The position numbers are program-made. Positions 45,001-48,000 of a DNA stretch of 64,000 nt are shown here, piece by piece. Every line of letters starts with the position of its first letter. The first letter of the stretch is position 1. This DNA comes from Trypanosoma brucei. Taxonomy: Eukaryota. Location: contig CP000070.1 of assembly GCA_000002445.1 (NCBI GenBank), forward strand, positions 1,728,001 to 1,792,000, given 5' to 3'.

Positions 45001-48000
45001 TTTTTATTAGTTCTGTGAAATTTATGAAAATGTTTTTAGATATTTTTTAAAAATTTACTAAAACTTGATATTTTAACACTTTTGTAAAACCTTTGAAAAA
45101 TTTTAAAAATTTGAAAAAACTAAGAAACTTAGTAAAGTATGTACGATTGTATCCTATAAAAGAAATGTAGTAAGGTAATGGGATATAAAAAGTGACTATC
45201 ATCATCATTTTGTAAATTTATGGATATTTGTTAGGTTAATAATAATAATAATACTAATAATAATAATAATAATAATAATAATAATAATAATAATAATAAT
45301 AATAATAATAATAATAATAATAATAATAATAATAATAATAATAATAATAATAATAATAATAATAATAATAATAATAATAATAATAATAATAAAGTGGTGT
45401 TGAAACGACTGGAGATCGAAAGTTTAATCCCTTAAAACAGCATCATGGTGTAGTGTAAGTATGTATGTGAGTTGCTGAGTAGGGAGTTAGAGAGCAAGGA
45501 ATTTACAAAAGAAAACGAAGAAATGAAATGAGAGAAAGACGGGAGATGGATTATATGAAGTTTCAAACACTAACATGACGGTGGTTATTATCACCTTACA
45601 GAAGAAGATAATATGGGACAATAAGTAGAGAAAAAGTATAGTGTACAAGCTAAGCGGAGCTACGGTATTCGCACAAGTGCTGACAGAAAGTGGAAATGAA
45701 GGAAACAATGCACGTAATGAAACAGAAGTATTTGCATCACAGCGTAAGAAGTGAAAAAGTATGTGCAAGGGATGGTTCCCAGTATTTTACTTTAAAATGG
45801 ATAGATGCTACATTTGAGAGGAAGTTGAAATCTGTTGTTTTTAATCTCAATGAGAATCTTAATATTTTGATGTAGGGAAAAGAAGGAGTAGGAGGAGGGA
45901 TTGCGTATTTTTATGCGTGATGTAATGTTAGAGTTCTTTTCTTATCAGGAACAGTAGTAAAGATCAGCAGACATGGGAGACACTGTAAAATTATCATGAG
46001 AGAGATTTTTTAAGAGTGTACTTGTTATGTATTACTATGACCAGGAATAAACCAAGTGAAAACACGAAAAGTGCTTTAAATAGTGCATATATAAACAATT
46101 TAATGACCTCAATAAGGTTGAGATAATCAAAAACCGATACCCATCCGGCGGCGTATTTTTATACTGGGCTGCATTAATACATTTCAAGAAGTTAGTAATT
46201 TATAAGTGAATAAACACTGGTGCGGCATTAAGAAAGCTTATTCTTAATATTAAAAGTAAAAGAGCGCAATCAGAACTGCAATCTCCGGCAAAAAGACATA
46301 AGATCCCCATAATAAACCGGGATAATGACTGAATATGCTAAAGGCCGCCAGCGTACCGGCGCGTAATCTTTATTTTTTCATTGCAGATGTACCCACAGAG
46401 CAGGCATCGGAATGCTGTAGACAACGAAAATAAAAGATATATGCCTCAGGTATATATATATAAGGTTTCAATATATTTTAGAAGTCTTAGGGAATAAGAT
46501 GACAAAGTAATAGATAAGAAATTTAGAGATCACCACATTGACGCACTAAGTAAGGAGTCAAAATGACAGATTAGAGTTAGAACTCCAAAGGTAAGTTTCG
46601 GACGCAAAGCAACTGAATACATCAAAGAAAGGAGCTTACCACAAACTATAAATATCGGTGGAGGTGGACATAAAAATAAATCTTCGTTTACACTAAACAA
46701 TAAATTCTCAGAACGAAGCGGCGTACAAAGAAATGCGAAACCAAACAACGCTAACACCCTTAGGAAAAACAACAAGCCGTGGGCACGCACAGCGACTTCT
46801 ATTCTCACAATCGCTCCCAACACCAAGTGGCAAAGAACAACCAAAGCCATTGAGACAAGCAAAGGAAAACAGGCTCGTTAGTCAAAACAGAGCATGAAGG
46901 CTTTGCTGACAATCGCGGCAGCCTTAACATGTCGTCTAACCCGTGGCGCTGAAAACGCAGACGGCGGTGGCTTATCAGCAAAGAGCCTAGCAACGTTGTG
47001 CGACTTGGGTGGCGACTTAAAACAAGCAGCCTACATAATGTCGACCAAACTTAAAGCACACGACGCTGCTATCCAAATACACCTGAAAAAGTTGCGGATT
47101 CTGGACACCCTTGAAGCGTGTACAAACAGCGAACGAAGGATCAAGACTACCCTTGCGCGGCTGATGTTAGCGGATTATGTACAGCATACAACAGCTCGCA
47201 ACGCAGCAGCGGAAACTGCGGTCGCAGCTGCAGCAGAGTCGGCATACTGGCCTGGCCGGCTTGACGAACTGGTAGCCATAGCAAAACAAAGCACGACAGC
47301 AACAGCCGATGCAGCATCGGAATCGATTTGCTTAGCAAACGTCGAGGCAGGACAAACAACTGCCAACGGACTCAAACACGACAGCGACCTGGCAACAGCA
47401 GGGCTCTCAGGCTGCAAGAACACGCAATCTACGACAGAGAAAACGGCAACCGCAATAAACATCCAAGAGCGGCTAAATGCGATAGGCAAAAAAAACGGCA
47501 TCTACGCTTCAGCGCCAGCAAACCCAGGCTGTATCTTAACCAAAAAAAGCACGGCGCACTACTATAAGACCCTCACCGGGCCAGCCACGCTAACTTTTGC
47601 AGGTGGAAGCATCCAACTGACGGCGCAAAACGGCGACACTGCCCCAACGAGCCAAAAACTCGGCGTAACCCAGTCAGGCAGCACATACAGCGCAAAAGCA
47701 GGCACTGGAATCAAAGAAGCCACAGACGCCGCCGCCCGAGGCATAACTGCAAGCAATATAGAAGGCCCTAAAACGCAGACCCTTTTAGCAGACGGAGCAT
47801 GGGAAACGGCGAAGAGCAACAAACTGTTGCAAGAAGCACTAAACCCCCATGAGGACGTTAGTAGCAAATACAACGAAGGCCTTCCAGAAAGCTCCAAGCC
47901 ACTGTACAGCGAGATCAGCAAACTCCACAAGAAGCTCGGGACGACGCTAGAGGCACTCGAAGCGAGTGGAGACTTTGAAACAAAGCTCAGGGCAAAATTC

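Follow-up and report, generated by a model that had tools for sequence, protein, structure and literature searches.

Why does an almost pure run of TAA triplets occupy the place of a 70-bp repeat upstream of the third VSG gene of a Trypanosoma brucei array, and does it make this site fragile, as a first-pass annotation had proposed? The run lies in a 64,000-nt stretch of DNA (assembly GCA_000002445.1, contig CP000070.1, positions 1,728,001 to 1,792,000 of the forward strand; hereafter the window), which we take to belong most likely to chromosome 7 of strain TREU927. Five VSG genes, identified by their Pfam domains and all on the plus strand, are located at approximately 40.8 to 54.9 kb of the window (Table 1). 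The region from 1 to 36 kb contains housekeeping genes coding for Dus, TsaD/Kae1, a DEX1-like protein, a RING-finger protein and a CFA20-domain protein, while a retroposon with reverse transcriptase and RNase H domains is found on the minus strand at 56.9-60.1 kb. The translated products of VSG1 and VSG5 are identical to the TREU927 proteins XP_846273.1 (490/490 residues) and XP_846274.1 (547/547 residues), respectively. The locus is thus a silent, five-gene array of T. b. brucei TREU927 that adjoins housekeeping genes. Both of the VSG genes that flank the triplet run, VSG2 and VSG3, are pseudogenes. The frameshift in VSG3 is found in an A-run near position 48278, which is short by one A (A5, while VSG2 has A6), and the VSG3 stop falls before the C-terminal GPI-signal region, the same region being still in frame in VSG2.

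The tract comprises 52 triplets, (TAA)5-TAC-(TAA)46, spanning 156 nt (45237-45392) with one A>C substitution, as determined by a regular-expression scan of the sequence. Tandem Repeats Finder delimits the same interval (period: 3; copies: 52.0; matches: 98%; score: 305). An almost perfect TAA tract of about 150 nt at 45241-45392 had been described previously, and this description agrees with ours in composition, approximate size and end position, while the true start lies four bases earlier, at 45237. The tract was also correctly placed upstream of VSG3, in that the start codon of this A-type VSG reading frame (PF00913; 46894-48300) is located 1,501 nt downstream of the tract end; the tract start lies 158 nt 3′ of the VSG2 3′-UTR motif. 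A (TAA)10 pattern has 37 overlapping match positions in the window, 37/37 of which fall within the tract, and 0 matches in 100 dinucleotide-preserving shuffles, so that no such tract is expected by chance. A coding or peptide role for the tract was rejected, as no open reading frame extends across it and TAA is a stop codon in one frame.

Table 1. Coordinates, in the window, of the VSG genes, repeats and tract-associated features, together with the form of the tract in the four genomes compared.
Feature	Position	Strand	Basis or remark
VSG1-upstream 70-bp repeat	39157-39297	+	Equal length in three collinear genomes
VSG1	40836-42308	+	
VSG2, B-type, several frameshifts and stops (pseudogene)	43495-45050	+	Pfam
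VSG2 C-terminal coding end, 3′ UTR and spacer	44883-45236	+	Sequence, blastn
TGATATTTTAACAC, variant of the conserved VSG 3′-UTR 16-mer, end of VSG2 cassette	45066-45079	+	Sequence
TAA tract, TRR module of a core-less 70-bp repeat, 52 units	45237-45392	+	Sequence, TRF, orthologs
(TAA)5 part of tract	45237-45251		
TAC, lone interruption, unit 6 of tract	45252-45254	+	Missing from the three other genomes, whose tracts are perfect
(TAA)46 part of tract	45255-45392		
AGTGGTGTTGAAACGACTGG, distal flank, identical in four genomes	45393-45412	+	Homologous to 55282-55300, after the last 70-bp unit
'Co-transposed' region, 1.5 kb, tract to VSG3 start codon	45393-46893	+	Strain comparison
VSG3, A-type, frameshifted (pseudogene)	46894-48300	+	Pfam PF00913
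VSG3-downstream paralogous junction, 11 mixed TRR units and degenerate GT-rich core	48629-48729	+	
VSG4, B-type	50226-51638	+	
VSG5-upstream repeat, two composite 70-bp units	52193-52340	+	One unit in T. equiperdum IVM-t1
VSG5, A-type	53242-54885	+	
VSG5-downstream repeat, two composite 70-bp units	55112-55270	+	One unit in both other collinear genomes
Tract in TREU927			(TAA)5 TAC (TAA)46, 52 units
Tract in T. b. gambiense DAL972			Perfect (TAA)16
Tract in T. equiperdum IVM-t1			Perfect (TAA)11
Tract in T. equiperdum OVI			Perfect (TAA)11

The other junctions of the array each harbor one or two composite 70-bp units, in accordance with the first-pass annotation. In these units, a module of 7-14 mixed TAA/TGA/TAG triplets is followed by a GT-rich core, GTGTTGTGAGTGTGTATATAC, which is present at six sites (39229, 48670, 52227, 52314, 55153 and 55246). 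When up to three mismatches are allowed, the GT-rich core (GAGAGTGTTGTGAGTGTGTATATAC) and the AT-rich segment 3′ of it have no match at the tract junction and six matches elsewhere, and in an alignment of the junctions the core corresponds to a 23-column gap at the tract junction, likewise in both other genomes aligned. There is no complete 70-bp unit on either side of the tract, nor a GT-rich core between its triplets and the distal flank AGTGGTGTTGAAACGACTGG. The tract occupies the typical position of a 70-bp repeat, 1-2 kb before the start of a VSG gene and 3′ of the 3′ UTR of the preceding one, and its triplets (51/52 units TAA, one TAC) align, without a shift of register, with the TRR modules found elsewhere in the array. 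The 354 nt at its 5′ side (44883-45236) share 97% identity with the sequence that precedes the VSG3-downstream 70-bp repeat, from position 48274. The corresponding blastn match (44883-45274 versus 48274-48659) extends into the triplet modules, where the high identity stops, and the value of 97% is counted up to the module, with the modules themselves reckoned apart. Located within this flank is TGATATTTTAACAC, a variant of the conserved VSG 3′-UTR 16-mer. The 3′ flank (AGTGGTGTTG...) aligns with the sequence 3′ of the last repeat unit at other junctions, and the post-tract sequence AGTGGTGTTGAAACG... with GGAGTGGTGTTGTTGAAAAC..., which is found 3′ of the last repeat unit downstream of VSG5. 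This position and the matching flanks on both sides identify the tract, at the level of sequence, as the expanded, pure TAA triplet module of a core-less 70-bp repeat, as had been suggested when it was said to stand in for such a repeat. The canonical 70-bp (76-77 bp) repeat described by Hovel-Miner et al. 2016 (PMC4858185) is located at the same site, approximately 1.5 kb before the VSG, and shares with the tract the register of its triplet module as well as the distal flank, but also includes a GT-rich core and an AT-rich spacer, both of which are absent from the tract.

Orthologous loci were identified by protein searches in T. equiperdum IVM-t1 (CM010678.1), T. b. gambiense DAL972 (FN554970.1) and T. 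equiperdum OVI, where the locus is found on a 7.2-kb contig; the orthologs of Lister 427 and EATRO1125, which are protein records without contigs, fall outside the comparison. Collinearity of the IVM-t1 and DAL972 loci with the window extends over some 21 kb, at 96-99% identity. Length polymorphism between strains, the test which the first-pass annotation had itself put forward, is observed, with 52, 16, 11 and 11 units in TREU927, DAL972, IVM-t1 and OVI, respectively. In the three collinear genomes, the 12 nt next to the tract on its 5′ side and the 8 nt on its 3′ side are identical. A 300-bp sliding comparison of all pairs of these genomes gives 0-2 mismatches per 300 bp in either flank, a level that persists in the 3′ region up to about position 46390. 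The tract thus combines whole-unit length polymorphism (52/16/11/11) with conserved flanks, as a slippage-prone microsatellite does. The sliding mismatch profile of the three collinear genomes shows no change in divergence at the tract, and no rearrangement or loss of flanking sequence is found there in these genomes. A breakpoint at the tract between the orthologous loci was rejected on the basis of this profile, divergence being concentrated within the VSG coding regions. The GT-rich core is absent from the tract junction in 4/4 genomes, which suggests that its loss is old, while the 52-unit length would, if parsimony is assumed in a comparison without an outgroup, be specific to TREU927.

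The other five junctions of the three collinear genomes served as controls. At two of them the length is invariant, at a third gambiense departs by one triplet, the pure TAA sub-run there being 5, 7 and 4 units long, and the remaining two differ by one whole 70-bp unit. The interrupted triplet modules of these five junctions thus change by no more than two triplets or not at all, and larger variation takes the form of whole 70-bp units.

The physical properties of the tract were predicted from its sequence. The two strands have minimum free energies of -0.8 and 0 kcal/mol and are less structured than shuffled sequences (z about +4). A hairpin or cruciform was therefore rejected as the basis of instability, as neither strand folds better than unstructured DNA, and hairpin-based models of triplet instability are not applicable. 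The duplex is the least stable in the 64-kb window, at -0.82 kcal/mol per nearest-neighbor step over 100 bp, the mean across the window being -1.40 (sd 0.107) and the second lowest value -1.02 kcal/mol per step. Furthermore, the tract contains a G/C-free run of 139 nt, while the next longest in the window is 32 nt. As calculated, the physical peculiarity of the tract is its extreme ease of strand separation rather than hairpin formation. Ohshima et al. reportedly observed in 1996 an unpaired ('non-H-bonded') state of TTA.TAA repeats in supercoiled plasmids, with which the low predicted duplex stability and the lack of a hairpin are consistent. 

AAT.ATT and TTA.TAA microsatellites in general resemble the tract in being composed of A and T only, length-polymorphic, without a predicted stable hairpin and of very low duplex stability. 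The AAT.ATT repeat is stated to rank, in the human genome, with the most polymorphic of triplets and to expand by slippage in vitro (PMC3000339). The same paper, by Pan et al. 2010, reports that in E. coli AAT.ATT neither expanded nor contracted in vivo, in contrast to the length polymorphism of the tract (PMC3000339). A literature search for microsatellite work on the TAA repeat in T. brucei retrieved none.

Long TAA tracts in VSG flanks have precedents. The tract had been regarded as an extreme version of the TAA portion of the 70-bp repeat, which overstates the case. Campbell, van Bree and Boothroyd are said to have published '(TAA)90' upstream of a VSG gene in 1984 (NAR 12:2759), which is longer than the 52-unit tract. 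Aline et al. reportedly described (TAA)n tracts 5′ of VSG genes in 1985, situated beside chromosome-internal genes, as in the present array. Like the tract, these cases of 1984-85 are long runs of pure TAA that precede a VSG gene, at the site or in the setting of 70/76-bp repeats, and a long uninterrupted TAA run in a VSG 5′ flank is exactly what is found here. The (TAA)90 of 1984 differs in that it belongs to an expression site and lies amid tandem 76-bp units, whereas the tract has no complete unit beside it and is the sole repeat remnant at its junction. As such, the tract is ordinary, one more example of a type already described, in a reference genome that is itself published, and introduces no new principle.

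We consider it likely, with good though not full confidence, that the tract is the remnant of a core-less 70-bp repeat, a slippage-prone TAA microsatellite that has expanded in TREU927 and is most likely neutral. In this account, the tract is the TRR module of one degenerate 70-bp repeat at the 5′ edge of the silent VSG3 cassette, from which the GT-rich core would already have been lost in the common ancestor of the four genomes. Through this loss a TAA run free of interruptions would have come to abut the distal flank, and a pure run of at least 11 units would be expected to behave as an ordinary slippage-prone microsatellite. Growth to 52 units would then have taken place in the TREU927 lineage, with replication slippage as the most likely mechanism. 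Expansion in TREU927, rather than contraction elsewhere, is what the four sequences suggest in a comparison that has no outgroup; conversely, a long ancestral tract may have contracted in three lineages. Selective neutrality is assumed as the most likely state of a tract located in a silent array between two pseudogenes. Plain slippage is expected to alter the length of any long pure microsatellite and to leave its flanks intact, and such polymorphism by itself does not separate slippage from fragility.

The tract had also been characterized as fragile and recombinogenic, and its low duplex stability and its length polymorphism would both be compatible with an easily unwound non-B duplex that stalls forks or breaks, creating a recombination hotspot from which VSG3 is rearranged or copied more often. 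The literature on which this proposal drew is as represented, in that one review describes the (TAA)n part of the 70-bp repeats as physically unstable and considers that it may stall forks and lead to breaks (PMC3467770), and another calls it non-B forming (PMC6237402). Passages in two publications still refer to the role of the triplet component in initiating VSG switching as untested (PMC6237402, PMC4858185), and the former, a review of 2018, uses the same term for the role of the 70-bp repeats in break formation. Two sequence junctions also favor fragility. The OVI contig switches homology exactly inside its (TAA)11, from a sequence like 38702-39232 of the window (92% identity) to one like 45336-48088 (97-99% identity), such that VSG1 and VSG2 are missing and a pre-VSG1-like flank with its repeat is joined to the VSG3 cassette. 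This switch is also an indirect hint that the tract may act as a 5′ limit of duplicative VSG transposition. Likewise, the 97% paralogous block that starts at 44883 and 48274 ends at the triplet module. In this small sample, both the OVI join and the block end represent old recombination endpoints at the triplet module, so that the tract is not demonstrably inert. The OVI contig was, however, rejected as a clean deletion allele, since it is a gapped short-read scaffold with N-runs and both of its flanks are only 92-94% identical to all three other genomes, suggesting that it may be a paralog or a chimera; moreover, its allele has 11 units at the switch point and is silent on the expanded form. 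Homology that ends at 70-bp repeats is, furthermore, an expected property of the whole class. Against fragility, the three collinear genomes retain near-identical flanks, and neither a rearrangement nor a loss of flank nor a shift in divergence is seen at the tract. Where these genomes differ in structure, they do so by whole units at ordinary composite junctions, and silent arrays are untranscribed, which removes the transcription-associated route to breaks. We therefore regard a fragile site as unlikely, and the claim of the first-pass annotation is so far not upheld by this small comparison.

Two further explanations have even less in their favor. The 156-bp, nearly perfect TAA run might compensate for lost homology, restoring enough uninterrupted homology to recombine with the long (TAA)n tracts inside some expression-site repeat arrays and altering the use of VSG3 as a donor. 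With the core absent, the triplets are the sole remaining homology to the expression-site repeats, a (TAA)90 flanked by 76-bp repeats has been reported at the 5′ transposition limit of a VSG gene, and the 70-bp repeats of expression sites are described as guiding pairing with archive VSGs after a break (PMC4858185). VSG3 is, however, a frameshifted pseudogene, a copy of the whole cassette would yield no functional coat, and pseudogenes are reported to be used through segmental conversion within the coding sequence, without 70-bp repeats (PMC12137147). The other three genomes have only 11-16 units. We find such compensation extremely unlikely. Hardly any weight is given either to an artefact, whereby a tract exists but the 52 units, or the short lengths in other assemblies, arose through errors of sequencing, cloning or assembly. 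When cloned in E. coli, AT-rich triplet repeats can become longer or shorter, and this could include those of TREU927; the repeat regions of expression-site clones are described as hard to finish (PMC2567434), and the OVI assembly is a gapped short-read one. The three comparison assemblies derive from different technologies, of which short-read or reference-guided ones can mis-size repeats. A pure TAA run is nevertheless found at the same place, between the same flanks, in four independent assemblies, made with different technologies. Both T. equiperdum assemblies give 11 units, one Sanger read can span 156 nt, and the TAC interruption is specific and an unlikely product of collapse.

It is very unlikely, in our estimation, that the tract acts as a site of breaks or fork stalling, or that its 156 bp of homology with the (TAA)n of expression sites alters mobilization of the cassette; if it did, the length of the triplet module would constitute a heritable, fast-mutating setting of recombination probability for each archive VSG. 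Under the preferred reading, that of a neutral, slippage-prone remnant, the locus confirms that a pure TAA run beside a VSG gene behaves as an unstable microsatellite. Furthermore, it provides a natural experiment, in which one junction is found with 11, 16 or 52 pure TAA units in near-identical surroundings and without the core as a confounder, and as such could serve as a marker or test site with which the effect of the triplet module is split from that of the core. Core-less junctions such as the one upstream of VSG3 may, in addition, be overlooked in searches based on the 70-bp consensus: at the thresholds stated in one published search with a 77-bp consensus (>45 bp and >70% identity; PMC4858185), the tract would probably be missed.

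Divergence between the strains of the compared Trypanosoma genomes is concentrated in sharp patches located inside the VSG coding regions of the silent array, where mismatches reach 84 per 300 bp, versus 0-3 per 300 bp in the intergenic sequence. The location of these patches varies with the strain pair that is compared. The coding patches resemble the products of segmental gene conversion within the silent array VSGs.

Two further patches can be observed. One is specific to T. b. gambiense, lies in the C-terminal region of VSG2 and its 3′ UTR, and ends about 200 bp short of the TAA tract found upstream of VSG3. 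The other follows the last housekeeping gene and precedes the first 70-bp repeat, and the ORFs it overlaps are without a Pfam match. VSG2 and VSG3 have a common C-terminal end (...AAFVAFLYKELF...), which runs beyond what we take to be the expected VSG stop point. In VSG3, the GPI-signal region is lost through the change of one base in a run of A (A5 versus A6). The number of whole 70-bp units, the composite repeats found at the VSG junctions, also differs between strains on both sides of VSG5.

Features and sites of strain difference in the window
Feature	Window position	Strand	Details
Change of long-ORF strand	about 19000-20300		minus before about 19 kb, plus after about 20.3 kb
Perfect (TG)45 dinucleotide repeat	30788-30877		between two housekeeping genes
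Patch before first 70-bp repeat	37390-38590		as many as 20 mismatches per 300 bp, small indels
VSG coding patches	41140-41440, 47140-47740, 50740-51340, 53440-54190
T. b. gambiense-specific patch	44740-45040		15-17 mismatches per 300 bp
Common C-terminal end	44880-45050 (VSG2), 48270-48300 (VSG3)
VSG3 A-run change	48270-48300
70-bp units upstream of VSG5	52185-52350		2 in TREU927, 1 in T. equiperdum IVM-t1
70-bp units downstream of VSG5	55100-55290		2 in TREU927, 1 in IVM-t1 and in DAL972
Retroposon	56886-60951	-	RNase H, C2H2 zinc-finger and reverse-transcriptase domains, split among several ORFs

A contig of T. equiperdum OVI (CZPT02001537.1, positions 1-7193) is a mosaic. Its VSG3 segment shares 99.2% identity with TREU927, but only 95.3% with T. 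b. gambiense DAL972 and 91.7% with T. equiperdum IVM-t1. Both flanks of the contig share 92-94% identity with each of these three genomes. VSG1 and VSG2 are missing from this contig, which may represent a paralogue, an allele with a deletion or a chimeric scaffold.

The downstream boundary of the VSG array is formed by the retroposon. Farther upstream in the window, the turning point of the cumulative GC skew coincides with the change of ORF strand, and this region resembles a divergent strand-switch region.
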